This document shows, piece by piece, positions 8,108 through 42,888 of a stretch of 64,000 bases of DNA. The notes under the pieces were generated by a model. The model did no database searches. It was not told where the DNA came from and was given only the letters and a program-made list of their open reading frames with translations. Every line of letters starts with the position of its first letter. The stretch's first letter is position 1. Location of the stretch: positions 2,976,001 to 3,040,000 of the forward strand of contig OZ242214.1 in the NCBI GenBank assembly GCA_965206595.1, in the 5' to 3' direction. This DNA comes from Candidatus Latescibacterota bacterium. GTDB lineage: Bacteria; Latescibacterota; UBA2968; UBA8231. The position numbers were made by a program, and so were the translations under genes.

Positions 8108-8144
8108 GTTGCCCGTCATCGACAGGAACAGGGGGCATTACCCC

Positions 8145-14230: not shown

Positions 14231-14339
14231 AGAATGCACCAACTCGGTGGGAACTTTAATGGTGGGGCAAAAAATAATTGACAAGGGTCTCTCTGGATGA
14301 GGCTCCCGCAAAAAAGAAATCCCAAAACAGGAGAGAGAT

Positions 14340-14818
14340 ATGCTACGTTTTTTCCCGGTCGTGCACCTGACTGCTCTTATAGTGACTCCGATGGCGATGG
14401 GATAACTATGATTGGGGCGCCGGGTGGGTTTATCACCGGAATCTTTGGAACCCCTTCGCTTTACGTATCCTGGTTTCCGAGTGAAAAGCTGACCATCGGG
14501 CCCGAATTCAATTTCGGGCGTATTGCAGTAGACGGAGATGGCATCACTTCAATTTATCTTGGGGGCCGGGGTGCATTCTTTCCGAATAGCAACGCCATAC
14601 CCGGTGTCTACATACTAGGACAGAGCGCTTTAATCGTCCTGAGTGACGAGTACGACTCCGAGACTGATTTCTCCGCCGGAGCGGGATTGGGTTATCAGTG
14701 GCGTCTGGGCCCTGCTTTCGTCCTTCGGGCGGAAGGGCGGGATCGGCTATGGTTCGAGGACGAAGTCAATGACTTCTCGCTCCTTCTCGGATTGGGTACC
14801 AGACTCAATGACAGATAA
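14340..14818 (+). pseudogene. Outer-membrane beta-barrel gene disrupted by an internal out-of-frame deletion
   Basis: RBS ggagag + ATG at 14340 gives signal peptide MLRFFPVVHLTALIVT, which stops at 14405. The barrel sequence (PSLYVSWFPSEKLTIGPEF...) continues in another frame and matches the intact paralog at 58819-60090. Confidence 0.75.
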
Positions 14819-14894
14819 CCAAGTCGGCCATGTTTTCTGATCCTGGAATCGTTCATGCTCATTCTCCCGTTTGATCCTTAGGAGGAAAGTATAT

Positions 14895-15575
14895 ATGCAG
14901 CGCCTTTTTATGTTTTTCTTCTTGACGGCTATTGTGGTGCACTCGCCGCTCTTCGCCCAGAAGATTGAAGATGTCATTCACTTGAAGAATGGGGAAACCG
15001 TTCGCGGCACCATCATTGAGCAAATTCCCGGCGAATCGTTGAAGATACAAACCGCAGACGGCAGCGTTTTCGTCTATACCATATACGAGATCGCCGAAAT
15101 AACCAGGGAGCCGGTGATGAAAATGGAAGAAGGATTCATCAAGGCCAAAAAGAAAAATCCCTGGCTCGCTTCCGGCCTGTCGTTGCTGATTCCCGGTACC
15201 GGGCAATTCTATAATGACCAATACAACAAAGGGCTGCCCCAACTCGGAGTTGCATTGGCAGGGGCAGGGTTTGTGTGGTGGGGTTTGAGGGATAATTGGG
15301 AGGAATGGGACAACCCGAAATCCTCCTGGAACCCGCTCCAGTGGGTCGATGAGGACGAAGATGATTGGACAATCTTTATCGGGGGCCCTCTTTGGTTAGG
15401 TAGCTTGATGTGGTCGGTGATTGACGCAAACCTCTCTGCCAACCGCATCAATCAGGAAGGTCAACAACCTGATTTCAGCCATCTGCTGGAGTTTGGCGGA
15501 GATCGAGCCACGTTGGGATTGGATCCTGTTTGGGGGCGCTACGGGCCAGGTGGGAAACTGATGCTTCATTTTTAA
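14895..15575 (+). CDS. Exported/membrane protein: 'LKNG' N-terminal domain + TM2-like hairpin domain
   Basis: RBS aggagg; signal peptide; '[31 protein letters not shown]' shared with 58819-60090; '[22 protein letters not shown]' TM2-like motif. Confidence 0.8.
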
Positions 15576-15718
15576 TCTCCACGCCAGCGCCAGCCCTTTC
15601 CATCCTGGCCATGAGAGTTCAACAAAGTCCTGAACTTTTCCCGAGGCAACCGAATCAAAAAATGACTGATAAACTTTTCAAAACCCCGTTTTTCCAGCCA
15701 ACCGCAAGGAGGCAGGCT

Positions 15719-17737
15719 ATGAAGTACTTCGCACTTTTTTTGTTATTCACTTTAAGCCTCGCCACATGCAGAGGACCTCAGGGCCCGCCAGGCCGCGATG
15801 CCGTGGATGGCCAGGTGGGCCCGATGGGGCCTTCCGGCGAGGAAGGGCCCATCGGCGAGGAAGGACCTGAAGGACCCCAAGGGCCTCAGGGGGAAGGGGA
15901 AAAAGGCGATCAGGGGCCTCAAGGCGATCAGGGGCCTCAAGGCGAACAAGGACCTCAAGGGGTAAAAGGGGATCAAGGCCAACAGGGAACCCAGGGCGAG
16001 CAAGGAACCCAGGGGGAACAGGGAACCCAGGGCGAGCAAGGAACCCAGGGGGAACAGGGAACCCAGGGCGAGCAAGGAACCCAGGGGGAACAGGGAACCC
16101 AGGGGGAACAGGGAACCCAGGGGGAACAGGGAACCCAGGGGGGGACCCAGGGGGAACAGGGAACCCAGGGGGAGCAAGGAACCCAGGGGCCTGAGGGATC
16201 CCAAGGACCTCAAGGCGAAGGCCAACAGGGAACCCAGGGCGAGCAAGGAACCCAGGGCGAGCAAGGAACCCAGGGCGATCAAGGGCCCATAGGGCCTCCG
16301 GGCCAACAAGGGGAACAAGGACCCCAGGGGCCTGAGGGACCTCAAGGCGAAGGCGAACAGGGGCCAGAGGGTCCACAAGGACCTGACGGAACCCAAGGCG
16401 AGCAAGGACCTGAAGGCGATCAAGGGCCCATAGGGCCTCCGGGCCAACAAGGGGAACAAGGTCCTGAGGGACCTGCGGGCTCCGGCGATGGCGAACCAGG
16501 GCCTCCCGGGCCTCAAGGGCCTCCTGGCCCCGAAGGACCTCCAGGCGACCAAGGACCTGAGGGACCTGAAGGACCTCCAGGCGATCAAGGACCTGAGGGA
16601 CCTGAGGGACCTGAAGGACTTCCAGGCGATCAAGGACCTGAAGGACTTCCAGGCGATCAAGGACCTGAAGGACCTCCAGGCGATCAAGGACCTGAAGGAC
16701 CTCCAGGCGATCAAGGACCTGAGGGACCGGAAGGACCTCCAGGACCTGGAGGATCCGGAAACGGACCAGGGGGACAGGAACCTCCCGTCTTCGAAGCCAC
16801 GGGAGATAGCGCCGCTCTGGTCGCGCTTTACTATGCTGCGGGCGGGGAATCCTGGACGAATAGGGCCCAGTGGCTCAGCTCCGCCCCCATCAGCGAATGG
16901 TACGGTGTCACCACCAACCCCAGCGGCCGCCTGATCCTTCGGCTGGACCTATCCGAGAATGCGTTGTGGGGGACAATTCCCCCCGAACTTGGTACCCTCA
17001 CCTACCTGGAATACCTGGACCTCTCCGATAACGGGTTGCGGGAGGAGATTCCACCGGAACTGGGAAACCTCGAAAACCTGGAAGTTCTAAACTTGTCCAG
17101 TAATAATTTGGAGGAGGAAATCCCACCCGAACTGGGAAACCTCGAAAGCCTGGAAATCCTCGGCCTGTTCGGCAACGAGTTGGAGGGGGAAATTCCACCG
17201 GAACTGGGAAACCTCCACAATCTGAAAGCGCTGTCCCTGGGTTCCAACAGGTTGGAGGGGGAAATTCCACCGGAACTGGGAAACCTCGAAAACCTGGAAT
17301 TTCTGAACTTGGCAAATAACAGGTTGGAGGGAATTCTACCGGATTTCCTGGCGGACTTCCCCAACCTGGAAGACCTGTTCCTCAATGGAAACCCCCAACT
17401 GAATGGATGCTTGCCGGAGGGGGCGTCGGTGCCGTACTGCACACAGCCAAACAACCTGAATGCAAGGCGCGAGAACGGCGCTACAGTCCTAACCTGGGAT
17501 CCTGTGGAAGGGGCTACCCACTACAATATTTACTACGAAGATTTCTGGAGTGGCTGCTCCGTGACTTCTGGTGGTGTAACTGAAAGTTTATCGTGTGACT
17601 TATTGGAGTCCGGCATCTTCGAGACGACCTACGTCCACACCATTAGGGCGGACGACGATGCTGAATACTGGGTTGCTACCTGCAACAACGATGGGTGCTC
17701 ACCCATATATAGTTATGACTCTGGAGCCAGCCCTTAG
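15719..17737 (+). CDS. Collagen-like (G-X-Y) lipoprotein with plant-type LRR and C-terminal FN3-like domain
   Basis: RBS aaggagg; lipobox-like LATC; about 330 aa of G-X-Y; LRR N-cap '[14 protein letters not shown]...W.GV'; '[12 protein letters not shown]' repeats. Confidence 0.9.
15975..16290 (+). repeat. 18-bp tandem repeats encoding GEQGTQ
   Basis: Repeated ga(a/g)ca(g/a)ggaacccaggg(g/c) units, with one broken unit at the G7 run 16138-16144. Confidence 0.9.
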
Positions 17738-17882
17738 GATAAATTTGGACCAGGAGTACTCATCCGACCACTGTTCAGCGGTCAGCACAAACCCCGGGCC
17801 GGATGAGTACGCCTCTTCCCTATCCGACGGCTTGGATCTGACTCGCAGGAAATACCTCCTTCACCCAGGAAGATGGAACCCC

Positions 17883-18245
17883 ATGCGCGGATGGAGGCGA
17901 ATCCCACTTCTCGGGCTGCTGTTGGGCTGGGCTGCTTGTGGAGCCAGCGGCAAGGGAACCGGGCCGGAGCCGGTAGTTGAGCCGGAACCGGTTGTTGAGT
18001 CGGAACCGGTGGTCGAATCGGAGCCGGTTGTCGAATCGGAGCCGGAACCAAAATGGAAGTGGACTTGTACCGCTACCGCCACTGGCAGAGACCGCCTCTT
18101 CGGAGCGCAAGTTTCTGGCACCATCAGTGTCTCTGAAGACACCGAGGCAGAAGCCCGACAGGATCTTCAGGACGCGGCCTGCTTGATATACAAAGATTGT
18201 GGACAGCTTCAGAACATATCCTGTGATGAACGGGAGGAATCTTAG
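17883..18245 (+). CDS. Small lipoprotein with EPVVES spacer repeats and a 4-Cys C-terminal domain
   Basis: MRGWRRIPLLGLLLGWAAC lipoprotein signal; four 18-bp repeats; four Cys after the spacer. Confidence 0.7.
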   Translation: MRGWRRIPLLGLLLGWAACGASGKGTGPEPVVEPEPVVESEPVVESEPVVESEPEPKWKWTCTATATGRDRLFGAQVSGTISVSEDTEAEARQDLQDAACLIYKDCGQLQNISCDEREES

Positions 18246-18304
18246 ACGTGGGCGAACCACGCACCCGTGCCGGTTTACTTATTGCATCCGGAAGGAGGCA
18301 GTCG

Positions 18305-19423
18305 ATGAACTACTTTGCGTTCATATCGTTGTTAGCTTTCGGCCTCGTCGCATGCGAAGGGCCTCCAGGGCCGATGGGGCCTCCAGGATCTCAGGGCGAG
18401 CAAGGGCCCCCTGGGCCCCAAGGCGAAGCCGAACAAGGACCTGAGGGACCCCAAGGACCCCAAGGACCACAGGGGCCCCCGGGACAACAAGGGCCTGAAG
18501 GATCCCAAGGCGAGACAGATGAACAAGGACCTGTTGCCTCCCCTGCCCTGTCAGATAGTACCGTGCTGGTCGCGTTCTACGATGCCACGGGCGGAGAAAG
18601 CTGGAAGGACAACACCAACTGGTTGAGTGAGGCCCCCATCGTCGAATGGTACGGCGTCACCACCAACCCGGGCGGCAGTTACGTCACCCGGCTCGATCTC
18701 GCGGAGAACGGATTGTGGGGAACGATCCCGCCGGAACTGGCCCACCTTGTCTACCTGGAATTCCTCAACCTGCGCAGCAACGAGCTCCGGGGGGAGATTC
18801 CGGCGGAACTGGCCAACCTTGGCAGCCTGGAAATCCTGGGCCTGGAAAACAACAATCTGCAGGGGGAAGTTCCATCGGGATTAGGCAAACTTGCCAACCT
18901 GCTGGCGCTGGCCCTGGGGAACAACAAGCTGCAGGGGGAGATTCCAACGGTCCTGGGAAACCTCGAAAACCTGGAATATCTGAGCCTCAACGATAACAGG
19001 CTGGAGGGAGTGGTCCCGTCCGAACTGGGAAACCTCGAAAACCTGCAAATCCTGTTTCTCGATGGAAACAACCAGCTGAATGGATGCCTGCCCGAGGGGG
19101 CGTCGGTGCCGTACTGCACAAGTCCAGGAAACCAACGATTCGGGTGGGATGATGAAACGATAGTCGTCAGTTGGGAGCCTGTGGAAAGGGCTACCCACTA
19201 CAATATCTACTGGGACGATTTCTTCACCTCCTGCCATCTGGAGCAAAGCGGCAAGCCGAGTTGGTGCGAGGAACTTGCTACACAGGTCTCCGAGACGACC
19301 TACGTTCACACTGACGCACCGGAACCAGGCATTTTCGACATCAACTACTGGGTCACTGCCTGTAACAGCGATGGGTGCTCGAAGATCGACACTGAAAACC
19401 CGGCCAGGTCTTCGACGCAGTAG
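18305..19423 (+). CDS. Short-collagen LRR lipoprotein (paralog of 15719-17737)
   Basis: RBS aaggagg; lipobox LVAC; G-X-Y tract; LRRs; shared '[16 protein letters not shown]' and 'ATHYNIY' tail. Confidence 0.9.
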
Positions 19424-19487
19424 AAACAAACCTTGCAAGATGGCTTTCATCGGAAACCGGCCCTCTTCATCTGAAAGGAGACAGGCA

Positions 19488-20480
19488 ATGAAATATCTGG
19501 CGCTTTCTTTGGTTTTTGCTTTCGCCCTCACCACATGCACAGGCCCTGAGGGACCAGTGGGACCTCAAGGTCCCCAAGGAGAAAAGGGTGAGCCAGGACC
19601 TGAAGGATCCCAGGGTCCTCAAGGCGAAGGAGAACAAGGGCCGCAAGGGCCAGAGGGACCTCAAGGGCCTCAAGGGGAACAAGGACCTGAGGGACCCCAG
19701 GGGGAAGGGGAACAAGGACCTGAGGGACCTCAAGGCGAACGAGGGTCCACGTACAGCATGCTGTACTGGGCGGACTCCGATGCGGGCAAGATTCAGCGCG
19801 CCAACCTCGACGGTTCCGAAGTTCAAACCATCGTCTCCGGATTGGAGGATCCGGAGGGCATTGCCCTCGACGTGGGCGGTGGGAAGATATACTGGACGGA
19901 ATGGGAGAGCGTTAAGCGGGCAAACCTCGATGGCACCCAGCTCGAAAGCCTCGGCACCGTATGGGGAAGTGACATCGCTTTGGACGTGGCCGAAGGCAAG
20001 TCGTACTTGGCGAACTGGAAAGAGACAATCTACCGTACGGGCCTCGGCGGCTCCCCGGTCGAAACCCTCGTCACCGAAGCGGGTGCATCGGAGGCCATCG
20101 CCCTGGATCTGAGCAGAGGAAAGATGTACTGGGGGGGCTGGCGCGGGGAGGAGATCAGGTGGGCGGACCTCGACGGATCCAAAGTCGAAATAATCGTCAC
20201 CGGAGTGGATCGTGTACGCGACCTGACGGTCGACGAGGGCGCGGGCAAGCTGTACTGGGCGTCGGATGCCGGGGTTCAGCGGGCAAACCTCGATGGTTCC
20301 CAGGTCGAAACCCTCTTCTCCGAAAACAGTATGGGCATTGCCCTCGACCTGGGCGGTGGGAAGATATACTGGACGGAATGGATCGAGGAGAGGATTCGAC
20401 GGGCAAATCTCGACGGGTCACAGGTCCAAACCATCGTCACCGGTTTGGAGTGGCCGCGCGATATCGCCTTGAGTCCCTGA
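19488..20480 (+). CDS. Collagen-stalk lipoprotein with YWTD (LDL-receptor class B-like) propeller
   Basis: RBS aaggag; LTTC lipobox-like; G-X-Y tract; six 'YW...RANLDGS' blades. Confidence 0.88.
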
Positions 20481-20576
20481 AATCTGAAAGGAGCGGGAAC
20501 AGCCCGGAAAGTTGCGGTTTTTTCCCAGGCCTGTTTGCAGCGCTTTTTCGACGGCCATCCCGAACCATAAGGAATC

Positions 20577-22172
20577 ATGAGAAAACACCTCCTGCCCTCA
20601 ATCGTTTTTTCGGTAGCGGCCTGGACCTTTTTGCCCAGGTACATCGAGGCCCAAATAGATGTCGATGTTGTTTCTGAAAGCATCGTCCGTGTTCGCGCGT
20701 ACCAGAAAGACCAGGTTGCGGTTGAGGGAGCCGGGTTTGTCGTCCATGAAACGGGATATGTCCTGACTAATGCCCATCTCGTGGAGAAAGCGGAGCGAAT
20801 AACGGTATTGTCCCTGAAAACGGGCGCCGAGGTGGTTCCCGAGCCGGTGTTCGCCAATCGGGAAATCAACCTGGCCCTTTTGCAGGCACAAAGTTTGAAC
20901 CTGCCTCCTCTCAGGCTATCCGAAAAGTCAGCCGATGTGGGCCGAGCCGTTCAGACGCTGCGCTTCGATGTCATGAGGAATGCCTGGCTTTCTCAGGGGA
21001 CGATAGGTGCCTACGAAACCATTTTTGACAAAAAGGCAGGCCTCCCCGTGGGGCGCCTGCTGCAGCACAATGCCTTGATAACCGCAACAGCCTTCGGCAT
21101 GCCCTTGTTCAACGAATGCGGAGACGTGGTGGCCATCAACATGCCGAACCCTCGCAGCGGCCCGTGGCCGTTTCGCACAGCGAAACCGAAAGGAGCCGTT
21201 TTTGCCTTGAGCAGCAAAAACATGATAGCTGCTCTCGACGACCGGAAAATCGCACATCATGCGGTAAATACTGAATGCCTGAGTGCTCTGGAGCGGGCGG
21301 AACGGGAGGGACTGGCGACTGCGGACAGCCTCAAGCTGGCAAGGGCGCAGGCCGACTCGGCGAGAAGGGCCGCAAAAGAGGCAGAAGAGAAAGAAGTGGC
21401 GTCCCGACAAGAAGCGGAAAGCGTGAAAGCCCGAGCAGACGCTATGAGAAAGGCGGCAGCCGAGAGCATTCAGGCTGCCAAGGCCCAGGTAGAAAGTCTG
21501 AAGACGGCGACAGCGCGGGCAGACTTAACGGGAAAAGCTGCGACCGACAGTCTGCTGGCTGACAAGGCCCAGCCCGAAAGCCTGGAGACAGCAAAAGCGT
21601 GGCCCGATTCCGGGACTGATTACGCCGCCGGCAGCAGTAAGGAAGCAACACAGGAGGTCCCGTTGAGCTTGAAGTGGGGAATTCCAATCGGGGGGGCACT
21701 GGTGTTGCTCTCCCTTCTCGGTTGGTTGCTTGCCTCCCAGCGAAGAAAGGAACAGCTACGCAGTGCGGAGTCCCGTTTGCGTGCAGCGGAAGAAACAGCT
21801 GAAGCAGCGCACCAGGCTGCGGCGGCCGCACCGAAACCCGCCCCTTTCAGATGCCTGCTGGAAGGCCGGGACAGCTCCGGGCGGCAATTCGCATTGACCG
21901 TATCGGCCCTGGCATTGGGTGATCCGGCCGGCGTAACGCTGGGGAGAAGCCCGGAAAACGCCGATTTCGTCATCGACCACGAAGCAGTCTCCCGCGAACA
22001 CGTTCGCCTCAGGTGCACTGGCGCCACGCTCTACGCGGAGGACTTGAACGCACTGAACGGGACAAAGGTGAATGGCCGTTTGCTGAACCCGCATGAAACG
22101 GCGGTTCTCCAAAACGAGGATCGACTCGAGATAGGCCCGATTGCTTTCTCCGTGCGCCTGGTCCAGGAGTGA
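20577..22172 (+). CDS. Trypsin-like (probably inactive) domain - coiled coil - TM - FHA protein
   Basis: Signal peptide; 'GAGFVV...YVLTNAHLV' trypsin fold; TM 'WGIPIGGALVLLSLLGWLLA'; FHA 'LGRS...VSREH...DLNALNGTKVNG'. Confidence 0.88.
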   Translation: MRKHLLPSIVFSVAAWTFLPRYIEAQIDVDVVSESIVRVRAYQKDQVAVEGAGFVVHETGYVLTNAHLVEKAERITVLSLKTGAEVVPEPVFANREINLALLQAQSLNLPPLRLSEKSADVGRAVQTLRFDVMRNAWLSQGTIGAYETIFDKKAGLPVGRLLQHNALITATAFGMPLFNECGDVVAINMPNPRSGPWPFRTAKPKGAVFALSSKNMIAALDDRKIAHHAVNTECLSALERAEREGLATADSLKLARAQADSARRAAKEAEEKEVASRQEAESVKARADAMRKAAAESIQAAKAQVESLKTATARADLTGKAATDSLLADKAQPESLETAKAWPDSGTDYAAGSSKEATQEVPLSLKWGIPIGGALVLLSLLGWLLASQRRKEQLRSAESRLRAAEETAEAAHQAAAAAPKPAPFRCLLEGRDSSGRQFALTVSALALGDPAGVTLGRSPENADFVIDHEAVSREHVRLRCTGATLYAEDLNALNGTKVNGRLLNPHETAVLQNEDRLEIGPIAFSVRLVQE

Positions 22173-22179
22173 GTGAAAA

Positions 22180-23130
22180 ATGAAAAGACGCAGGCCCGAA
22201 CTCAACGTTTTCAGCATGTCCGCGCTCGACCTGCTCGCATCGGCCCTCGGTGCTTTCATCCTGATTACCGTAGTGCTTATCCCCCTGTTTCCGAATCTGG
22301 AAATCCTGGGACAGGTCAGGGGGGAGTTGGCTCAGACAAGAACCGAGTTGGAGCAGACGAAGTCAGACCTTGACCTGGCAATGGCGGACCTGGACCGGAA
22401 GGAATCCAGATCCCGGTTGGACAAGGAAAAATCAGAGCGGGAAAGAACTGAATTGGAGCGCAAAAATATCGAGCTGAAACAGGAAGGGGCCAAGCTCGAG
22501 CAGAAAAAGACATTGGCTCAACAAACCAAATCCGAACTTGTGGAACAGGTGCAGGCGTTGCAACAGCAGATAGACGACACGAGCGTTCTGCTTGGTATAA
22601 AGACAAAGGCGAAAAAGTTCGTATTCGTCATAGATATGTCGGGGAGCATTTACCATCCCGGAGAGCACGACTATCGGCAGTTCATATCACTGTCCATACA
22701 AAACATGCTCGCTTCTTTCAAATCCGAAATAGAGGTCTGCCTGATCGGTTTTCAGGCTCCTGAACGAGGAACCGTGTTGCATTTCTGGCCCGAAAGCAAG
22801 GAATACTTCCAAGTCAAGAAGGATGCACCAAATCAGCTTATTGGAAAGATAAGCGACTGGATGGGAATGGTAGATGGCGTCACACCCACCCGCCCCGCCT
22901 TGCTGGCGGCCATTGCCTTGGACCCCGAAGAAATCATCCTTCTGAGCGATGGAGCTCCCTCGGAGGATTGGCGCACGGTGGTGCGAGCCGTAACCGCTGA
23001 AAACAGCCAGAGAATACCCATACACGCAGTAGCCGTCGGGAATTACACCGCCGACCGCAAGTTCATCGATTTTCTCGTGCATTTGACAAAGCAAAACAAC
23101 GGGTACGTGGTGGGAGCAAAACCGGGCTGA
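22180..23130 (+). CDS. ExbD/MotB-like TM anchor - coiled coil - vWA domain protein
   Basis: N-terminal TM with Asp17 'FSMSALDLLASALGAFILI'; MIDAS 'VIDMSGS', 'GVTPT', 'LLSDGAP'. Confidence 0.88.
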   Translation: MKRRRPELNVFSMSALDLLASALGAFILITVVLIPLFPNLEILGQVRGELAQTRTELEQTKSDLDLAMADLDRKESRSRLDKEKSERERTELERKNIELKQEGAKLEQKKTLAQQTKSELVEQVQALQQQIDDTSVLLGIKTKAKKFVFVIDMSGSIYHPGEHDYRQFISLSIQNMLASFKSEIEVCLIGFQAPERGTVLHFWPESKEYFQVKKDAPNQLIGKISDWMGMVDGVTPTRPALLAAIALDPEEIILLSDGAPSEDWRTVVRAVTAENSQRIPIHAVAVGNYTADRKFIDFLVHLTKQNNGYVVGAKPG

Positions 23131-23156
23131 AATGAACAGCCGAGAGGAGAATAGGC

Positions 23157-23957
23157 ATGGCGAAATCGAACATGATCAAAGCGAAAAGCATCAACAGGGA
23201 GCAACGCCTGATCGCCAGCGTCGTCAGTCTGTCCGGCGGCATTTTATACATAGCGGCTCTGAGTTTTGTTTTCGATCAGCCCGATTCCATTGCAGGCGAT
23301 TTTCTGTTGGATCGGAACTCCAAAAACTTCTCCTACCCGTTCACCATCCAGAACCTCATGTGGCTGTTGTTCTGGTTCGGCTGCGGTGAGCTCTGTGTGC
23401 GCTTCAACCAGGCCAAACTCGAGATGCAGCAGATTTCAAAAGGGTACCTGCCGGAAGGGGATGAGGTTATGCTTCAGGCCCACGAATTGGGGCCCTTGCA
23501 CCAGAAATCCATGCCCGTGGCCAGGGAGCGGACCTTTTATCTACCGCGTCTGATCGGGCGTTGCATCCTGCAATTTCAGGGAAGCCGCTCCGTCAACCAG
23601 GCCAACTCTCTACTGAATTCTTCCCTTGAATTGTTTCAGCACGAGCTCGATCTCAAATATTCGATGCTGCGCTACCTCGTCTGGCTCATTCCAACGATGG
23701 GTTTTGTAGGCACTGTTCTCGGCATCGCCCTGTCTTTGGACTATGCCGCCAAAATTGTAGACCCGCACGACCCGACCTTGCTGCGCCAGATCACGGGGCG
23801 GCTCGGCGTCGCCTTCTACACTACCCTGCTTGCCCTGGTCCAGTCCATACTTCTGGTGTTTGCGCTCCACATTGCTCAAACCCGGGAAGAGATGGCCCTG
23901 AACCAATCCGGGCAATACTGCTTGGACAACCTGATCAACCGGCTCTACGAAAAGTAA
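23157..23957 (+). CDS. MotA/TolQ/ExbB proton-channel family protein
   Basis: 'LIPTMGFVGTVLGI' and 'VAFYTTLLAL' channel helices; four hydrophobic segments. Confidence 0.9.
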   Translation: MAKSNMIKAKSINREQRLIASVVSLSGGILYIAALSFVFDQPDSIAGDFLLDRNSKNFSYPFTIQNLMWLLFWFGCGELCVRFNQAKLEMQQISKGYLPEGDEVMLQAHELGPLHQKSMPVARERTFYLPRLIGRCILQFQGSRSVNQANSLLNSSLELFQHELDLKYSMLRYLVWLIPTMGFVGTVLGIALSLDYAAKIVDPHDPTLLRQITGRLGVAFYTTLLALVQSILLVFALHIAQTREEMALNQSGQYCLDNLINRLYEK

Positions 23958-24010
23958 GTCTCCTTCGAGACCTCTGCGCCTTTGGAAAGCCCTAGAAAGG
24001 AAGGAAACCC

Positions 24011-24664
24011 ATGCCCGTTTTCCGCCGCCCCGATGGCAATATCACCGAGAAAAAGACCGAGAAATCCGAAAAGGACTCCCCCTCGCCCGACCAGGCCAAA
24101 AGGCCGCTGCCACCTGCATCTCAGGAAGGCAATCAAGCAGCCGGTCCCGGGCGTTTCGATGCAGCCACCAAGCGGATGGAGACCGACCGTACTCCACCCG
24201 ACCCGGGAGAGGAGGAAAAAACGCGGCTGGTGGGTGGCCGGGCGCCGCGAGCGGACACAGGCGTCCGCCAGGAAAGCGCCCAAGAGGGCCGCGGCATGGA
24301 TGATCCGGTGGTGGGATGGTTGGTGATCGTCGAGGGGCCGGGAAAAGGCCGGGCCGTCCAGTTGGGTTATGGATCCAATTCCCTCGGGCGCGGCGCAACC
24401 GACCGCGTCAAACTCGATTTCGGCGACGACCAGATTTCGCGAAACGGCCATGCGGTGGTCACGTACGATCCCCGCGGACGGAAGTTCTACGTGCAGCACG
24501 GCGGCGGCACCAACCTGACGTATCTCGGCGATCGGCCCGTTCTCGCACCGACCGAGTTGCCGGCCCAGGGCCGGATCGGCATCGGGAATACGGTTCTCCG
24601 GTTCGTGCCCTTCTGCGGCTTCGCGTTCGACTGGCAGGACTCGGAAGGAAGCGAAGACCCTTGA
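24011..24664 (+). CDS. FHA-domain protein with disordered N-terminus
   Basis: 'VVGWLVIVEGPGKG...LGR...DDQISRNGHA..YD...GTNLTYL...IGNTVLRFVPFC'. Confidence 0.88.
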   Translation: MPVFRRPDGNITEKKTEKSEKDSPSPDQAKRPLPPASQEGNQAAGPGRFDAATKRMETDRTPPDPGEEEKTRLVGGRAPRADTGVRQESAQEGRGMDDPVVGWLVIVEGPGKGRAVQLGYGSNSLGRGATDRVKLDFGDDQISRNGHAVVTYDPRGRKFYVQHGGGTNLTYLGDRPVLAPTELPAQGRIGIGNTVLRFVPFCGFAFDWQDSEGSEDP

Positions 24665-25605
24665 CCGAAAGCGGTCGCTGTGCCGCGAAGCAAATCCGCG
24701 GCAAACGGAGCTATCAGGAAGACGATTACGGCTTCCTCGATGCGCGCGCCCTTGGAAAAGACCGTTACGAACACTCCCTGTTATTGGTGGCCGACGGCAT
24801 GGGCGGGCATGTCGGCGGCGCTGCCGCCAGCGGCCTTCTGAGAAGGATCTTCGTCGAGGCCTACCCGCGGGCTTCCGGATCGATCACCGATCGCCTCCAG
24901 GGCTGCCTGCAATCGGCCAATGCAGCCATGGCCGACGCCATTGCCCAGAAACCCGAACTGGACAGCATGGGTTCCACTTTGGTCGCGGCGGTCGTCTCGA
25001 GCGAAGGCCTGAACTGGATCAGCGTCGGGGATTCCCCGTTGTGGTTGTTCCGCAAAGGCGCACTGGCGCGGTTGAACGCGGACCACTCCATGGCACCGGT
25101 TCTCGCGGACCTGGTAGCTACCGGGAGGATGACCGAAGAGGAAGCCGCCCGGGATCCAAGCCGGCATTCGCTGCGGTCCGCGGTCATGGGCGATGACATA
25201 CATCTGGTGGATGTATCGCCGCGGCCGGTGCCCGTGGAGAAAGGCGACCGGCTGCTGTTGGCCAGCGACGGTTTGATGACCCTCGGCGACCGGGAGATCG
25301 CCGGTATCCTCGAGGAAACGCAGGACGCGTCATTGGAGGATAGCGCCGCGGCCCTTATCCAGGCCGTGGAAGCCGCCGAAAATCCCCGTCAGGACAATAC
25401 CACCCTCTTGTTGTACGCCCCTGCTGAAGGCACGGAAACGGCTGCTGACGCTTCCGAAGAAGCCGATCAGGGGATGCCCCGATTGAGACGCTGGGCCAGA
25501 CTGTTGGGACGAGCCGCGGGCAGAAAACGAAAAGGGGTCCAGACCGGAGAAGGAGATGAGAGTGCAGGGCCGTCGCCGCTACCATCCACCCCCGGTTCCG
25601 GCTGA
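24661..25605 (+). CDS. PP2C/PPM-family Ser/Thr phosphatase
   Basis: TTG start overlapping the previous stop (TTGA); motifs QEDD, VADGMGGH, GSTL, VGDS, LASDGL, DNTT. Confidence 0.93.
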   Translation: MTESGRCAAKQIRGKRSYQEDDYGFLDARALGKDRYEHSLLLVADGMGGHVGGAAASGLLRRIFVEAYPRASGSITDRLQGCLQSANAAMADAIAQKPELDSMGSTLVAAVVSSEGLNWISVGDSPLWLFRKGALARLNADHSMAPVLADLVATGRMTEEEAARDPSRHSLRSAVMGDDIHLVDVSPRPVPVEKGDRLLLASDGLMTLGDREIAGILEETQDASLEDSAAALIQAVEAAENPRQDNTTLLLYAPAEGTETAADASEEADQGMPRLRRWARLLGRAAGRKRKGVQTGEGDESAGPSPLPSTPGSG

Positions 25606-27554
25606 TGGGCGAGGAACAACAGCATCGCCTGGCGTTGCCCAAAGGAACTCGCATACGCGACTTCGAGTTTCATCGGGTTCTCGGCCACGGCGGGTTCGGG
25701 ATCACCTACCTGGGATGGAACATCACCCTGGACATCCCCGTGGCGATCAAGGAGTACTTCCCCGCGGACCTGGCTACCCGCGAACGGAACCTGTCGGTCG
25801 TTCCGCAGACGGACCAGGCCGCCCCCGATTTCCAATGGGGCCTGGAGCGCTTCCTGGACGAAGCCCGCATCCTCGCCCGCTTTCAACATCCCGGCATAGT
25901 CCGCATTCACCACTTCTTCGAAGCCCACCGCACAGCCTATATCGCAATGGACTATGTGGAGGGGGAAAGTCTGTCCGCGTATCTGACGCGCAAGGGAACG
26001 CTGAGCGAAATCGAGCTCCAAGGCATTCTGGATCCGTTGCTGAGCGCGTTGGAAGTGGTACATCGAGCAGACTTTCTGCATCGAGACATCAAGCCCGGCA
26101 ACATCGTCCTCCGAGCAAAGGATGGCTCGCCGGTGTTGCTGGACTTTGGCGCCGCGCGTCAGGCAATGGGTGCGAAAAGCCGCTCGGTCACGTCGATAGT
26201 AACGCCGGGGTATGCGCCGATCGAACAGTATTCAACCCGGGCGGCTCAAGGAGCCTGGACGGACATTTACGCGCTGGGGGGGGTGTGTTATCGGGCGTTG
26301 ACCGGAGAGAACCCTTTCGATGCAACCGACCGGATGCGGAACGACCCGCTGATCCCGGTGGCTCAGCGCTGCGCGGGCAAAGCAAGTCCAAAGTTTCTCG
26401 CGGCGATAGATGCCGCCCTAACGGTGGATGCCCCGGATCGTCCCCAGAGTATCGCGGCGTGGCGAGAGTCCCTTGGCGAGGCGCGGAAAGCGCGGAATGA
26501 TGGGGCCAATGACGCTGCAGTTGCTGGCAAAATGGAGCAGGGCGCGTCGCCATCGAAGCCTCGGAAGAACCTTAAATACAAGCTTGTTGCAGCCGTCCTG
26601 GGTCTGGCCGCTCTCCTGATCGGGGGCGAAAGGTTTGTTGAGCATGCCGAACAGGTGGAATTGGAGAAGAAGCGTCAGGAACAAGCCGCCTTGGTGAAAC
26701 AGGCTCAGGAACAAGCCGCCCTGGAGAAAGAGCGCCAGGACCAGGCCGCGTTGGAGAAGCAGGAGCAGGAAAAAGCGGCCCTGGAGAAACAGCGTGGCAA
26801 ACAGGCGGCGTTAAAGAAAAAGCGTCAGGAACAAGCGGAGCTGGAGAAACAGGCTCAGGAGCAAGCCGCCCAGGAGAAACAGCGCCAGGACCAGGCCGCG
26901 TTGGAAAAGCAGCAGCGGGACCAGGCTGCACTTGAGAAGCAGCAGCGGGAAAAAAAGGCGGCATTGGAGAAACAGCGCCAGGACCAGGCCGCGTTGGAAA
27001 AACAGCGCCAGGAGCAAGCCTTCGTCGCAGAGGTGGGGCGCCCTCCACATCCGGGCGGAATGAACAACGGCGATACCGACCTGCATGTTGCCGCGAGACT
27101 GAACCTGCCCCTGTTGACTGCATCCCTGCTCGAGCAGGGAGCCGATGTCCACGCCACAAACAAGGACGGCTGGACACCGCTCCACGTTGCCGCCAAGGAG
27201 GACGCTGCTGCAACCGCCGGGGTCTTGCTCAAACAGAAAGCCGATGTCAACGCCAGGGAAACATTGTTCGGCTGGACGCCGCTGCACCTGGCCGCGGCCA
27301 AGGAAGATGCTTCTGCGACCGCCGAGGTCCTGCTCCAACAGAAAGCCGACGTCAACGTCAAGGACAAATTCGGATGGACACCGCTGCATTCCGCCGCTTC
27401 AAACAATGCTTACAAGACCGCAGAGGTTTTGTTGAACAGCGGGGCTGATGTCAACGCCAAGGACAATCATGGCTGGGGGCCGCTTTACTGGGCGTCACGC
27501 AAAAAGGCTTCCCAGGCGGCGGACGTCCTGCGCCGTTACGGTGGTCGAGAATGA
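25605..27554 (+). CDS. Hanks-type Ser/Thr kinase - TM - 11-residue-repeat coiled coil - ankyrin repeats
   Basis: TGATG coupling; GHGGFG, VAIKE, HRDIKPGN, DFG, GYAPIEQ; TM 'LVAAVLGLAALLIGG'; 'GWTPLH.AA...ADVNA' ankyrins. Confidence 0.95.
   Translation: MGEEQQHRLALPKGTRIRDFEFHRVLGHGGFGITYLGWNITLDIPVAIKEYFPADLATRERNLSVVPQTDQAAPDFQWGLERFLDEARILARFQHPGIVRIHHFFEAHRTAYIAMDYVEGESLSAYLTRKGTLSEIELQGILDPLLSALEVVHRADFLHRDIKPGNIVLRAKDGSPVLLDFGAARQAMGAKSRSVTSIVTPGYAPIEQYSTRAAQGAWTDIYALGGVCYRALTGENPFDATDRMRNDPLIPVAQRCAGKASPKFLAAIDAALTVDAPDRPQSIAAWRESLGEARKARNDGANDAAVAGKMEQGASPSKPRKNLKYKLVAAVLGLAALLIGGERFVEHAEQVELEKKRQEQAALVKQAQEQAALEKERQDQAALEKQEQEKAALEKQRGKQAALKKKRQEQAELEKQAQEQAAQEKQRQDQAALEKQQRDQAALEKQQREKKAALEKQRQDQAALEKQRQEQAFVAEVGRPPHPGGMNNGDTDLHVAARLNLPLLTASLLEQGADVHATNKDGWTPLHVAAKEDAAATAGVLLKQKADVNARETLFGWTPLHLAAAKEDASATAEVLLQQKADVNVKDKFGWTPLHSAASNNAYKTAEVLLNSGADVNAKDNHGWGPLYWASRKKASQAADVLRRYGGRE
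26660..27020 (+). repeat. 33-bp tandem repeats (QEQAALEKQRQ-type hendecad stalk)
   Basis: About 10 imperfect copies of cagga(a/c)ca(a/g)gccgc.(t/c)tggagaa within the kinase gene. Confidence 0.85.
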
Positions 27555-27616
27555 AATTATCTGGAGCCAGTTCTTCACAACCTCCCCGGATTCATCCGGC
27601 CCACAGGAGAATTCCC

Positions 27617-30600
27617 ATGAAAATTTCGGTTCTACAGTCCGCATGTCTTCTGTTGTTCGCTTTCCTGCTCTTGCCGCCCGCCAGCTATACCTCCCCCTCC
27701 CCTATCGACTGGGCGAATTCCTGCCGGCTGGTCGATTCCGAGCAGTCGGAGGGGGATCACATCCTCGGTCCGGCCCCAAAGCGGCTGGCGGATTCGGACA
27801 GTTCCCAAACACGTACGGTGCAGCTTATCTACTTCATTCCCAATGACCGCACGTTCGACTCCGACGTGGTCGACACCATAAAGGCAAGGATTCCCCGGAT
27901 ACAAACCTTTTTCCGCGACCAGATGCAGGCCCATGGCCACGGCAACAAAACCTTTCAGTTCGAAACCGACGACCAAGGCGACCCGGTGGTGCATCGCGTC
28001 GACGCGCCGAACTCCGACAGCAGCTATCTCCGCTCCTATCGCATGGTCGGCGTCGGCAACGTGCTCCGTGATCTGAGACCGACCTTTGATTCCGGAAACA
28101 GCATTTTGTTCATCGTCGCCGACCATAGCACCTACGATAATCTCGGTTGGGGCAACGTGGCAGGATTTGGCGGCCGGTCGGGAAAAAACAGCGGCTACGC
28201 ACTTCTTCCCCCCAACTTCATCGTCGCAACGGCGGCCCATGAGCTGGGCCATGCTTTCGGCTTGCAGCACGATTTCAACGACGACGCCAACATCATGTCG
28301 TATGGCCCGGGATGGAACCGGTTGTCGGCGTGCAGCGCCGGGTTCCTGGCCGTGCATCCCTACTTCGATGCCGATGTCCCCATTGAAGAACAGCAGACCT
28401 GGGACCTTCTCGCTCCGACGGTCCAGCTTGTTTCACCCCTGAGATATCCAGCGGGCTCTACGAGCCTCTCCCTTCAATTCAGGGTCACGGCTTCAGGGGA
28501 CCGGGGACTACAGCAGGCCCTTTTCTTCCTCAGATCGAGAGCGCCCCACCCTGCTGCGGGGTCCCACGAGGTGAAGGGGTGCCATGACTTGCAGGGTGTG
28601 CAGGATACCGTCGTTGTATTCCAACATGACGGGGTCATCCCGTCCGCGGGCTCGGGTAGTCTTTCCGAGTCCCCTGCGCATTTCGTTTCCGTGCAGGCAC
28701 TCGATAGCGAGGGGAATGCGAACAGCGGACCCTATCGCGATTCTCATTTCGTGCTGGCGGAAGATTCGCCGCACCACCTCGCCACGCTTTTCAGGAATAC
28801 GAGCGAGTTCTCGCCGGAGATCTATGGGGCGAAGTTCTCACCGGATGGATCTCTTCTCGCCGTAAACTCGTCCGCCGGGATCGGGATCTGGGACGTGGCG
28901 ACGAGAACGGCACTTGCTTCCCTCAGTCAAAGAAGCGTCTCCTCCACCGCGTTCTCCCCCGACGGGACCCTTCTCGCTTCCGGTTCCTACAGTACTTCCG
29001 AGGCCAACATCAAGCTGTGGGACGCAGCGAACCAATCCCTCGTCGCCACTCTGCCGGGGCATACCGGTGGGCCTACGGGGGTCCATTCGCTGGCGTTTTC
29101 TCCCAGCGGAGACACCCTCGCTTCAGGCTCAGGGGATCAGACGATCAAGCTGTGGGACGTGGCAAACCGAACCCTCATCGCCACTCTCGAAGGACATACG
29201 AGTCATGTCTGGTCTGTGGCATTCTCCTCCGACGGAACCCTCGCTTCCGGTTCCCGGGACGGCACGGTCAAGCTGTGGAACGTGGCATCGCAAACCAATA
29301 CCGCCACCCTCGAGGGGAATTCGGGCCGGGTCCTCGATGTGGCGTTTTCACCCGATGGAACCCTCCTCGCATCGAGCACGGACCTCGCGATGCAGCTTTG
29401 GGACGCGGCAACGAGGACAATATCGGCCACCCTTCAGGGGCACGGAGAAGCGTCTTTTTCCCCGGACGGGACGATCCTCGCCACTGGAGCTGGACAGGGG
29501 GAGGTCCTGCTATGGGCGGTGGCGACAGCGGGCACAACAGCCGCCCTGGGGCATCCGGGCCGGCTGACTGACCCGGAGGGCTTCGGGATCACCGGGGTAT
29601 TTTCTCCCGACGGATCCCTTCTGGCTTCGGTAGCCATTACCGGAGTCGAGCTGTGGGACGCCTCCGAGTGGACGGGAGTCTCTCCGGTGACCTCGGTGCC
29701 GGCTCACCCGGACAGTGTTGCGCTGGCTGCGTTGTACAACGCCACCAACGGCGCCAACTGGCAGGGCAAGACGAACTGGCTCAGCAGCAGGCCCATGGGC
29801 GAGTGGAAAGGCGTTTCAACCAACAGCCTCGGGCGCGTCAACGATCTGACGCTCAGTGGGAACCGGTTGAGCGGGACAATACCGGCGGAGCTGGGCAACC
29901 TCGCCTTCCTGTCTTCCCTGTATCTCTATACCAACCAGTTGAGCGGGGAGATCCCCTCTGAAATGGGGGACCTCTCCAACCTCAGATATCTGGAACTCAA
30001 CCATAACCAGCTGAGCGGACAGATCCCCTCCGAACTGGGAAGCCTGTCCAAGCTGGAACGACTGTCGCTCCATAGTAACCGGTTGACCGGACAGATCCCC
30101 TCCGATCTCGGCAGCCTGGCCAGCCTTAAACAACTGAATCTCGGTGGTAACCAGTTGACCGGAACGATACCGGCAGAATTGGGCAACCTGACCAACCTCA
30201 CGAGCCTGGGGCTCTCCAACAACCAGTTGACCGGGTCCATACCGGCGGAACTGGAGAACCTGACCAACCTGAGGAACCTGTACCTCGCCGGAAACCAGTT
30301 GACCGGCTGCATCCCGGCGGGCCTGCGGGACGTAGCCAACAACGACTTGGACATGCTGGGTCTGTCCGACTGCGGTCAAACACAAACCCAGGCAACGACC
30401 GATTTCAACGACGACGGCAAAACCGATTTCGTCGACTTCTTCCTCTTTGCCGATGCCTACGGCGGCACCGACGCAAAGTTTGATCTCGACGGTAGTGGCA
30501 CAGTCGACTTCGTCGACTTCTTCCAGTTCGTCGACGCCTTCGGCCAGGCGGGACAGGCCAAGCTGCTGGCGATGGCCCAGGAGATGTTCGGGCTGCCGGC

Positions 30601-30877
30601 TGTCCCCGAGCTGCAGCAGAACTGGCCAAATCCCTTCAACAGCGAGACCGTCGTCTCCTGGTTCTTGGCGAAACCAGGTCCAGCGCGGCTGGAGGTGTTC
30701 GCCCTGACCGGGCAGCGGCTGGCGATCCTGCACGAGGGCCCGCAGCAGGCCGGTTACCACCGCCTTCACTGGGACGGCCGCGACGACGAGGGCCGCCCCC
30801 TGGGCACCGGCGTCTATCTGTACCGCCTGGTGACGGATGAACGCATCCTGACGCGCAAGCTCACCCTGCTGCGTTGA
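27617..30877 (+). CDS. Exported metallopeptidase + WD40 + plant-type LRR + dockerin-like + sorting tail
   Basis: RBS aggag; HELGHAFGLQHD...IMSYG; WD40s; 'LSGTIPAELGNL' LRRs; 480-nt tail. Confidence 0.9.
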   Translation: MKISVLQSACLLLFAFLLLPPASYTSPSPIDWANSCRLVDSEQSEGDHILGPAPKRLADSDSSQTRTVQLIYFIPNDRTFDSDVVDTIKARIPRIQTFFRDQMQAHGHGNKTFQFETDDQGDPVVHRVDAPNSDSSYLRSYRMVGVGNVLRDLRPTFDSGNSILFIVADHSTYDNLGWGNVAGFGGRSGKNSGYALLPPNFIVATAAHELGHAFGLQHDFNDDANIMSYGPGWNRLSACSAGFLAVHPYFDADVPIEEQQTWDLLAPTVQLVSPLRYPAGSTSLSLQFRVTASGDRGLQQALFFLRSRAPHPAAGSHEVKGCHDLQGVQDTVVVFQHDGVIPSAGSGSLSESPAHFVSVQALDSEGNANSGPYRDSHFVLAEDSPHHLATLFRNTSEFSPEIYGAKFSPDGSLLAVNSSAGIGIWDVATRTALASLSQRSVSSTAFSPDGTLLASGSYSTSEANIKLWDAANQSLVATLPGHTGGPTGVHSLAFSPSGDTLASGSGDQTIKLWDVANRTLIATLEGHTSHVWSVAFSSDGTLASGSRDGTVKLWNVASQTNTATLEGNSGRVLDVAFSPDGTLLASSTDLAMQLWDAATRTISATLQGHGEASFSPDGTILATGAGQGEVLLWAVATAGTTAALGHPGRLTDPEGFGITGVFSPDGSLLASVAITGVELWDASEWTGVSPVTSVPAHPDSVALAALYNATNGANWQGKTNWLSSRPMGEWKGVSTNSLGRVNDLTLSGNRLSGTIPAELGNLAFLSSLYLYTNQLSGEIPSEMGDLSNLRYLELNHNQLSGQIPSELGSLSKLERLSLHSNRLTGQIPSDLGSLASLKQLNLGGNQLTGTIPAELGNLTNLTSLGLSNNQLTGSIPAELENLTNLRNLYLAGNQLTGCIPAGLRDVANNDLDMLGLSDCGQTQTQATTDFNDDGKTDFVDFFLFADAYGGTDAKFDLDGSGTVDFVDFFQFVDAFGQAGQAKLLAMAQEMFGLPAVPELQQNWPNPFNSETVVSWFLAKPGPARLEVFALTGQRLAILHEGPQQAGYHRLHWDGRDDEGRPLGTGVYLYRLVTDERILTRKLTLLR

Positions 30878-30951
30878 TGGACCGGTGTGCCAGAATTCGA
30901 CTACTGGCCGCCGGACACATCTCAAAACGGAAAGCACTGGAGGATAACCCT

Positions 30952-36390: not shown

Positions 36391-36519
36391 TCCTACCGAC
36401 CGGAACAGAGTTGACAGGGCCTTATGGAACGATGTCATCTGTAATCCATAGCGGTGAACCGAGATAAGGAAAAACGTTATGAGGATGGACGCAAAGCGAT
36501 ATTACAGGAGCATAACCCT

Positions 36520-42751: not shown

Positions 42752-42888
42752 TGGATCCCAACCCTGAATCCGGGCCACAACCGGGATTCTTACGAAGTCG
42801 CCGTCCTTGAAAGCCCAAGCGGAGAAACCAAAACAGGATCGCACGCATTGCGCGCCGCGGCTTCCAAATGAGACGGAGAGTTACAGAA

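Follow-up and report, generated by a model that had tools for sequence, protein, structure and literature searches.

The six-gene cluster

The stretch of DNA analysed here, referred to as the window, comprises 64,000 nucleotides of the genome of a Candidatus Latescibacterota bacterium (assembly GCA_965206595.1, contig OZ242214.1, positions 2,976,001 to 3,040,000 of the forward strand). It contains a compact cluster of six genes (Table 1) that encodes a channel subunit of the MotA/ExbB/TolQ type, a membrane-anchored protein with a von Willebrand factor type A (vWA) domain as its candidate partner, and a Hanks-type kinase, a PP2C-type phosphatase and two proteins with forkhead-associated (FHA) domains. 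The first four genes are spaced by 7, 26 and 53 nucleotides (nt). Beyond them, the TTG start of the phosphatase gene overlies the TGA stop of the FHA gene (TTGA, 24661-24664), and a TGATG overlap (25603-25607) joins the phosphatase and kinase genes. The first-pass annotation of this DNA had described the same six plus-strand genes, with these limits, gaps and overlaps, and its description was confirmed, as were all six of its domain calls, through Pfam matches or, for the vWA domain, through an AlphaFold2 model and Foldseek. The membrane segments lie where it had placed them, and hydropathy supports the three stalked extracytoplasmic heads that it had recognised.

Table 1. Genes of the cluster, followed by neighbouring repeat-protein genes of the window.
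Gene or product	Position	Strand	Length (aa)	Features
P0001, pseudo-protease reader	20577-22172	+	531	Trypsin_2, transmembrane helix, FHA
P0002, motor axle candidate	22180-23130	+	316	Asp-helix, coil, vWA domain
P0003, MotA/TolQ/ExbB-type channel subunit	23157-23957	+	266	Pfam MotA_ExbB
P0004, putative cytoplasmic FHA switch protein	24011-24664	+	217	Pfam FHA
PP2C-type Ser/Thr phosphatase	24661-25605	+	314	TTG start, PP2C profiles
P0006, receptor Hanks-type Ser/Thr kinase	25605-27554	+	649	Pkinase, transmembrane helix, ankyrin repeats
Reprolysin-like metallopeptidase/WD40/leucine-rich repeat (LRR) protein	27551-30877	+	1108	Context only, outside the conserved system
CARDB/LDL-receptor-class-B protein	747-7940	+	2397
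WD40/LRR protein	8109-11876	+
WD40/LRR protein	11891-14230	+
WD40/LRR protein	40151-42751	+
WD40/Big_1 protein	42868-48429	+	1853

Relatives of P0003 are encoded at 531 loci in a pattern scan that covered one genome per species, and the best 80 of these loci were examined. Sixty of the 80, here called fully flanked, have at least 8 kb of sequence on both sides. Open reading frames (ORFs) were called and clustered all against all, and families were counted on the strand of the channel gene using family hidden Markov models. These superseded single-sequence phmmer searches, which undercounted divergent modules (vWA 30/80, trypsin 47/80). The ORF caller was a simple one, so a family counted twice or more at a locus may owe this in part to overlapping frames.

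The channel and its candidate axle

P0003 matches the Pfam family MotA_ExbB (PF01618) over residues 146-245 with an E-value of 8.7e-10 and 38.9 bits, against a cut-off of 22.9 bits. Hydrophobic segments are strong at residues 18-36, 174-192 and 218-236 and weaker at 64-82, and the predicted structure indicates that the protein probably has a fourth, N-terminal helix. The AlphaFold2 model has a mean predicted local distance difference test (pLDDT) score of 82.8. Among the top matches listed for it by Foldseek, nearly all are ExbB, TolQ, PomA, MotA or ZorA chains, the best being TolQ (TM-scores 0.56 and 0.66, root mean square deviation 3.7 over 212 columns). Thr186 and Thr222/Thr223, in the last two helices, are invariant in 35 of 35 sequences and align with the GT and TT residues of PomA, which we take to be pore-lining. 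The C-terminal tail, GQYCLDNLINRLY, is almost invariant across 35 sequences, and the protein ends 26 residues past its last helix.

P0003 is present in a single copy in the window genome. Five MotA_ExbB and six ExbD matches are found in that genome, and two of the ExbB genes have adjoining ExbD genes; the ExbD-family match closest to P0003 lies about 760 kb away. With its gene ending 26 nt upstream, P0002 clearly suggests itself as the candidate partner of the channel. It begins with MKRRRPELNVFSMSALDLLASALGAF, a short basic N-terminus that is predicted to be cytoplasmic, and hydropathy places its transmembrane helix at residues 18-36 with a basic N-flank. In the AlphaFold2 model (pLDDT 80.4) a helix at residues 12-33 is followed by an unbroken helix of 91 residues (43-133) and then by an alpha/beta domain (135-316). 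The Pfam VWA match of this domain is weak (E-value 9.3e-4, 19.9 bits, under the 23.8-bit cut-off). Foldseek returned 85 matches to the model at E <= 0.001, the top listed ones being mainly vWA/integrin-I domains with ITIH1 the best (5.2e-7), and the metal-site motif DxSxS is present as DMSGS at residues 152-156.

The helix of P0002 reads SALDLLASALGAF and contains no His, so that the SHLS motif is lacking. Its transmembrane aspartate, Asp17, had been singled out in the first-pass annotation and is invariant in 43 of 43 aligned partner proteins, as are Phe11, Leu18, Ala20, Ser21, Gly24 and Phe26; the periplasmic parts of these partners differ. A Pfam scan of P0002 found neither the periplasmic domain of ExbD/TolR (PF02472) nor an OmpA-like domain. 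Since its periplasmic part consists of a helix and a vWA domain, with no match to PF02472, P0002 falls outside ExbD/TolR/MotB proper; its helix may work like theirs.

Across phyla, the first 40 or so residues of the Asp-helix protein are nearly identical while the part downstream varies. The group to which the window belongs has a long coil and a vWA domain of the window type; in Acidobacteriota, Rhodothermales and some gammaproteobacteria the linker is short and the vWA domain is of another kind; and many proteobacteria and Binatia carry a non-vWA domain of about 100 residues for which Pfam has no match. This last domain bears the motif DIDLHV.DP.G ... GPGNEIW, seen in the axle genes of loci L039, L045, L048, L051, L053, L065 and L067. 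When ten distant axle proteins were scanned, Pfam recognised a vWA domain in five and returned only coiled-coil noise for the other five. In a search with the Asp-helix region, two SAR86 partners with this non-vWA domain carry the UniRef label 'DUF2135 domain-containing'. Relatives of the axle protein also match PF28006 and PF28019 in precomputed Pfam annotation. The invariant part of the motor pair is the Asp-bearing helix and not the vWA head; the first-pass annotation had framed the pair as MotA/vWA, and on this point it needs correcting.

A putative phosphothreonine circuit

P0004 matches the Pfam FHA family with an E-value of 3e-6 and the NCBIfam model FhaB/FipA with 6.6e-12, the latter under its cut-off. 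An N-terminal motif conserved in the family, which reads MPVFRRPDGNITEKKT in P0004, is followed by a disordered, Thr-bearing linker, by the FHA domain (residues 103-200) and by a conserved C-terminal CG..FDW. Within the disordered arm, Thr71 (EEKTRL) is invariant in 24 of 24 family sequences. In the FHA domain, Arg127, Ser143, His147 and Asn168 are invariant or nearly so in the 24 sequences, Arg127 strictly.

The phosphatase matches Pfam PP2C_2 (E-value 5.2e-10, 39.7 bits against a cut-off of 24 bits) as well as SpoIIE and PP2C. Its NCBIfam match to Stp1/IreP has an E-value of 8e-38 and 130 bits, under the 230-bit equivalog cut-off. By eye the metal-binding motifs appear intact: ED at residues 20-21, DGMGG at 45-49, and GDS, DG and DN.

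P0006 matches Pfam Pkinase (E-value 1.2e-37, 130.2 bits) and ankyrin repeats (8e-30). The kinase domain, residues 20-300, has VAIK, HRDIKPGN and DFG motifs and is followed by a transmembrane helix (323-341), a repetitive stalk of about 135 residues rich in Gln, Glu, Ala and Lys (342-479) and ankyrin repeats (approximately 490-646) that are extracytoplasmic by topology. Charged helical stalks thus placed between the transmembrane helix and the head occur in P0001, P0002 and P0006, and their lengths are comparable. The kinase heads vary among relatives: in a sample of ten loci, FGE-sulfatase-like domains were seen in three, Sel1 in two, PEGA in two, PDZ in one and a peptidoglycan-binding domain together with FGE in one, and none was recognised in one; the kinase of L076, in the same sample, carries DUF6804 together with a tudor-like domain that may or may not be extracytoplasmic. 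Latescibacterota loci have as many as six kinase genes within 10 kb.

Fuller loci encode a further, small FHA protein of 105-175 residues as called (median 131), with a tail of the type GPVRRNxxTGEII. By clustering, 45 of the 80 loci have its gene directly before that of the channel, for example L018:9640-10005, and it is seen across L010-L082; a query with this protein found no match in the window genome. The tail resembles the N-terminus of the P0004 family (MPVYRGPDGKIIEEKT). A regular expression describing both is found in 35 of 45 tails and in 49 of 55 heads, and in one of 1,238 other ORFs from these loci; having been written after both motifs were viewed, it measures specificity within the data set and not significance. 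Tail and head are encoded on the two sides of the channel gene, and this suggests a shared docking site. One protein, P0026, was initially listed as a MotA-FHA fusion and was rejected as such, being a small FHA gene in a frame-shifted read-through into the MotA gene.

Live and dead trypsin modules

P0001 matches Pfam Trypsin_2 over residues 51-187 (E-value 3.2e-16) and FHA over residues 453-520 (8.3e-16). A signal-peptide-like N-terminus precedes the trypsin/HtrA-like domain, and a stalk rich in Ala, Glu and Lys leads to a transmembrane helix at residues 363-381 (hydropathy) and on to the FHA domain. The trypsin domain is accordingly predicted to be periplasmic and the FHA domain cytoplasmic. 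No PDZ domain was found in the Pfam scan, the closest NCBIfam models are HtrA/DegS/MamO, and the FHA domain resembles OdhI, under the curated cut-off. The catalytic triad is broken: in alignment columns over 96 family members His67 is retained, Asn98 stands at the Asp site and Phe173 at the Ser site, so the first-pass label of pseudo-trypsin was correct. In proteobacteria the His has also been lost from the dead trypsin copy.

A second trypsin module with a transmembrane helix, adjoining the dead one, is present in fuller loci and has an intact triad (motifs TNxHV, DLA and GNSGGP). Live (GNSGGP) and dead (AFGMP) modules are adjacent in 29 of the 60 fully flanked loci, for example L018:7270-8625 beside L018:6031-7263, and the pairing is seen across L010-L081. 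Both bear cytoplasmic FHA domains or related tails. When the live protease was searched for in the window genome, the best match was P0001 itself, at 27-30% identity, and the other matches were generic HtrA-like genes elsewhere.

These modules raise the alternative that the system carries out proton-powered periplasmic proteolysis, a rotor head feeding envelope proteins to the live/dead HtrA-like pair under phospho-control, with the window version decayed or confined to sensing. The periplasm contains no ATP, and any proteolysis that consumes energy in it would have to draw on the proton gradient; the adjacency of the two modules, their shared cytoplasmic FHA domains or tails, and the comparable stalk lengths of axle, pseudo-protease and kinase all fit such a function. 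However, the live protease is missing from 27 of the 60 fully flanked loci, from all eight rows of the window clade described below and, with the query used, from the window genome, and loci L022, L023 and L025 lack a trypsin module altogether. We regard this explanation as unlikely.

Conservation and distribution

The companions of the channel gene recur across the fully flanked loci. A P0004-type FHA protein is encoded at 59 of the 60, a Ser/Thr kinase at 58, PP2C at 57, an Asp-helix protein at 54, the dead trypsin module at 49, the small FHA protein at 45 and the live trypsin module at 33; an Asp-helix protein, FHA, PP2C, kinase and any trypsin module are found together at 48. In 77 of the 80 loci the channel gene is followed by an FHA gene that starts within 900 nt. 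Genomes of this sort commonly hold kinase, PP2C and FHA genes, and an orphan channel gene might have come to lie beside an ordinary operon of this kind by chance. That explanation is contradicted by the linkage counts, which hold under seven phylum labels and with permuted gene order, and we reject it as scarcely credible. The same counts bear on the first-pass annotation, which had staked its reading on the linkage of the motor genes to kinase, PP2C and FHA genes in other genomes: that linkage, seen at 57-59 of the 60 loci, stands, and with it the combination of a MotA/ExbB-type channel, an Asp-helix/coil/vWA partner and a kinase/PP2C/FHA set.

Because L022, L023 and L025 are without any trypsin module, the minimal recurrent core consists of the Asp-helix protein, channel, FHA, PP2C and kinase. 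Conservation does not extend to the six-gene order, which the first-pass annotation had suggested checking. The trypsin and Asp-helix genes are upstream in Latescibacterota; in most proteobacteria, Binatia and Acidobacteriota they are downstream. Seven or eight genes make up the fuller system. Outside the seven core families, no cluster is present in more than 14 of the 80 loci, and the largest of these are opposite-strand shadows of core genes.

According to the submitters' own phylum labels, the 80 rows comprise 34 Latescibacterota, 31 Pseudomonadota, eight Acidobacteriota, two Gemmatimonadota, two Binatota, two Rhodothermota and one Actinomycetota; the three Gemmatimonadota and Actinomycetota bins are placed inside Latescibacterota clades and may be mis-binned. 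In the channel tree the window belongs to a clade of eight rows (support 100), all without the small FHA gene and the live protease. This clade is nested in one of 26 rows (support 95), the remaining 18 of which have the small FHA gene in 15 cases and the live protease in 11. On this midpoint-rooted tree the pattern reads as secondary loss of both genes in the window lineage. Proteobacterial groups are interleaved with Latescibacterota clades, and the Latescibacterota label requires at least four changes on well-supported branches.

At E <= 1e-30 the channel is found in 35 of 168 genomes of the window phylum and in seven of its 52 high-quality genomes. Occurrence within the phylum is patchy: 17 of 31 genomes in one genus, none of eight in another and none of 13 in one family. 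The whole cluster is present in two or three copies in single genomes (L004/L005 on one contig, L010/L020/L040 on one contig, and L067/L071), and the channel proteins of the two clusters on the L004/L005 contig are identical. Distribution and tree fit a system that is accessory and moves horizontally; paralogy or errors in binning may also underlie the pattern.

Patchy occurrence, up to three copies per genome and the interleaving of proteobacterial and Latescibacterota rows would also suit a Zorya-type system of defence against phages or other invaders, in which the motor senses envelope damage and the phospho-circuit, joined in full versions by the protease, executes a response. Variable sensor heads, here on kinases and axle, are likewise common in conflict systems, and PADLOC detected a weak likeness of P0002 (residues 7-100) to ZorB (E-value 1.4e-4) and of P0003 to ZorA (1.1e-5). 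No PADLOC system model was matched, however, beyond weak or generic ones. P0003 is without the long ZorA tail, the conserved families include no nuclease, NTPase or other cytoplasmic effector, and the window flanks hold giant repeat proteins and not defence genes. Defence had been one of the roles offered by the first-pass annotation; PADLOC supplied no positive evidence for it, and we consider it improbable.

A proposed phosphorylation-switched envelope motor

We interpret the six genes as a pared-down version of a conserved system of five to eight genes, at the centre of which stands an ion-driven motor of the MotA/ExbB/TolQ (5:2) kind. In this reading, to which we assign a probability of roughly 0.6, the cluster encodes a phosphothreonine-switched, proton-driven envelope motor of the TolQ-like/TPH-axle class. 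The overall role of the cluster is most likely envelope sensing or force transduction. Two P0002 helices would sit inside a P0003 pentamer in the manner of TolR, ExbD or MotB, and proton flow via Asp17 and the Thr ring would turn or pull the axle. The vWA heads, some 13 nm out on their stalks, would then apply force to a ligand in the periplasm or outer membrane. On the signalling side, the periplasmic ankyrin head of P0006 would sense a cue and the kinase would phosphorylate threonines, Thr71 of P0004 being the best candidate. The phospho-marks would be read by the FHA domains of P0004 and P0001 and the circuit reset by the PP2C. P0004 could thereby act as a GarA/OdhI-like phospho-switch at the cytoplasmic face of the motor, and P0001 as a ligand-binding co-receptor whose periplasmic head, binding substrates without cutting them, is coupled to phosphorylation state.

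Several observations weigh against this interpretation. The Foldseek E-values of P0003 are weak, the best being 5.9e-3 and no match reaching 0.001, and the channel-family profile reaches solved chains among PDB sequences only at E-values of about 0.2, for which reason we place P0003, on sequence and model, in a distant branch of the MotA/ExbB/TolQ superfamily. No threonine is conserved on the cytoplasmic side of the channel, which makes a phospho-mark directly on the channel unlikely, and the proposed link from FHA proteins to motor is drawn from gene adjacency alone; if they do bind the channel, the FHA proteins probably do so without a phosphate on it. A predicted complex of channel and P0004 scored 0.00, without controls, and counts neither way. 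Since another domain replaces the vWA head in many loci, the mechanism cannot hinge on vWA chemistry as such. Six of the 60 fully flanked loci have no same-strand Asp-helix gene within 10 kb, that of L074 being on the opposite strand. Finally, the counts describe the best 80 of the 531 loci, with 451 left.

A more ambitious version, covering the whole family, is that of a phosphorylation-gated, proton-powered 'pull-and-cut' envelope machine. A rotating axle would seize periplasmic or outer-membrane proteins with its exchangeable head (vWA in the window), pull on them and present them to the membrane-tethered live/dead HtrA-like pair, cytoplasmic FHA tails would signal in both directions, and the window lineage would retain a pure force-and-ligand sensor acting via threonine phosphorylation. 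We offer this as speculation with little chance of being right; were it true, proteins would be degraded at the expense of energy, or mechanical force sensed, in a compartment that has no ATP.

The phosphothreonine-switched motor, if real, would offer a testable route to the coupling of membrane energy with envelope sensing or remodelling. The system is also widespread enough to matter: besides the 531 loci in species representatives, a search of 1.84 billion representative proteins with the channel profile gives 198 clusters at E <= 1e-30, 1,777 at <= 1e-10 and 3,524 at <= 0.001. Carriers with isolate titles, namely Nioella ostreopsis Z7-4 (L066), Halioxenophilus sp. WMMB6 (L080) and Gammaproteobacteria bacterium LSUCC0112 (L048), make genetics feasible.

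Genomic surroundings

The cluster is enclosed in a run of about 48 kb of plus-strand genes for giant repeat proteins (747-48429; Table 1). Upstream, the ORFs 15530-17737, 18248-19423 and 19275-20480 encode bacterial collagen triple-helix repeats, fused to LRRs in two cases and to LDL-receptor class B repeats in one; as called, the last overlaps its predecessor by about 150 nt, and its start is uncertain. Downstream, 27551-30877, 30874-36390 and 36454-39372 are three paralogues; in each, WD40 and/or LRR arrays come after a reprolysin-like/'Metallopep' zinc-peptidase region at the N-terminus, and the first two genes share 4 nt. From 50592 onward the genes are ordinary ones (PPK2, Omp85, sulfatase, BipA).

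The start of the first of these paralogues overlaps the kinase stop by ATGA, and the transcription unit therefore probably continues past the kinase gene into 27551-30877. A promoter and terminator scan of 14000-32000 did not rise above shuffled sequence, with no promoters against 4.5 expected and 23 terminators against 21. In agreement with the first-pass annotation, no TonB, TolA, flagellar or type VI secretion system (T6SS) family was matched in Pfam among the 33 window proteins or protein pieces scanned, some small ORFs being outside the scan, and neither cell-wall synthase nor tellurite genes were found among the scanned proteins.

Position inside the repeat-protein run, together with the 4-nt overlap with the next gene, could be taken to mean that the cluster is a lineage-specific regulator or export helper for this island of collagen, LRR, WD40, CARDB and reprolysin-like proteins, a role that had also been put forward in the first-pass annotation. 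Yet no island family is common to the related loci, where conservation ends with the core, and the core has different neighbours in proteobacteria, Acidobacteriota and Rhodothermales. The idea is largely refuted by these comparisons, and we give it very little credence.

Relation to known systems

The closest published counterpart is a 2025 study (PMC12204202), in whose main text membrane-tethered vWA (TPH-vWA) proteins are reported to co-occur tightly with tolQ homologues in the absence of tolR/exbD. Its AlphaFold 3 models of a 5:2 motor insert the Asp-bearing helix of the vWA protein in the pentamer, next to a Thr ring and in the place of TolR/ExbD. The vWA genes it describes, in Proteobacteria and Verrucomicrobia, are mostly heterologous pairs, and the family was seeded from Idiomarina. 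The window resembles these motors, as that text presents them, in that a tolQ-like gene stands 26 nt from a membrane-tethered vWA gene with the nearest ExbD about 760 kb away, and in that the P0002 helix has an Asp of the proton-binding type and lacks the SHLS motif. It differs in having a single vWA gene. Among the relatives, two Asp-helix genes were scored in seven of the 80 loci, of which L012 and L032 represent one split gene and the other five have two full-length copies. These five (L042, L043, L062, L081 and L082, with the genes in tandem in L042 and L043) show the arrangement that PMC12204202 describes in its main text as a heterologous pair. The Asp-helix region search listed no Idiomarina names; the Idiomarina-seeded family may still belong to the same clade.

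In the main text of PMC12204202 the words kinase, phosphatase and trypsin have no occurrences and the sole match to 'FHA' is FhaC. By term search, FHA and vWA are likewise absent from the searched text of a review of 5:2 motors (PMC9389320) and of a 2025 paper on MotAB evolution (PMC12505986). Literature searches found no paper combining MotA, FHA, PP2C and vWA, or TolQ, FHA and PP2C, and looser queries yielded nothing on the whole system; PADLOC and NCBIfam gave no system-level or equivalog-level model for the cluster. The first-pass statement that no such system had been described consequently needs dividing. The motor core has been predicted in print, in 2025; its link to a threonine-phosphorylation circuit and a live/dead protease has not, as far as the literature searches reach and judging by the main text of that paper.

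Likeness to Zorya ZorAB is limited to a MotAB-like pair outside motility and to the weak profile matches given above. ZorA ranks 50th in the fold search with P0003 (E-value 0.14), P0002 has a vWA head in place of the peptidoglycan-binding domain of ZorB, there are no effectors of the ZorC, ZorD or ZorE type, and no PADLOC Zorya model other than the weak ZorA and ZorB was matched.

Threonine-phosphorylation circuits include PpkA/PppA/Fha1 of T6SSs, FhaA/FhaB-PstP-PknA/B of actinobacteria, GarA/OdhI and the TerY-P operons of vWA, kinase, FHA and PP2C genes. Deinococcus DRA0331-0334 is reported to be an operon of this last type. As in these circuits, a Hanks kinase, PP2C and FHA proteins are encoded together in the window, and P0004 recalls GarA/OdhI in its disordered Thr-bearing arm beside an FHA domain, a likeness backed only by sub-threshold NCBIfam matches to FhaB/FipA and OdhI. 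Unlike them, the cluster joins the circuit to a MotA-family motor, of which the vWA domain is predicted to be a periplasmic part. From the T6SS pathway it differs further in that no T6SS family is found among the scanned window proteins. With HtrA/DegS proteases P0001 shares the Trypsin_2 fold and the nearest NCBIfam models; it is set apart by the broken triad (Asn98, Phe173), by the lack of a PDZ domain and by a C-terminal membrane anchor with a cytoplasmic FHA domain.

Ion-driven 5:2 motors power flagella, TonB-dependent uptake, the Tol-Pal system, gliding and one phage-defence system. To our knowledge, none of them carries its own Ser/Thr kinase, phosphatase, phosphothreonine readers and tethered protease modules. 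Comparison with TolQR-TolA and ExbBD-TonB brings out both sides. Common to all are a channel fold that is probably of the same kind, the Asp in the single helix of the partner and a long, periplasm-spanning element with a terminal binding domain. In contrast, the cluster has neither the ExbD/TolR periplasmic domain nor a separate TolA or TonB, its axle itself bearing stalk and head; its channel probably has a fourth, N-terminal helix; and a kinase, a phosphatase and FHA proteins are dedicated to it. If our interpretation is correct, the cluster represents a class of motor that is switched by phosphorylation and whose axle extends into the periplasm, where it bears binding heads that can be exchanged.

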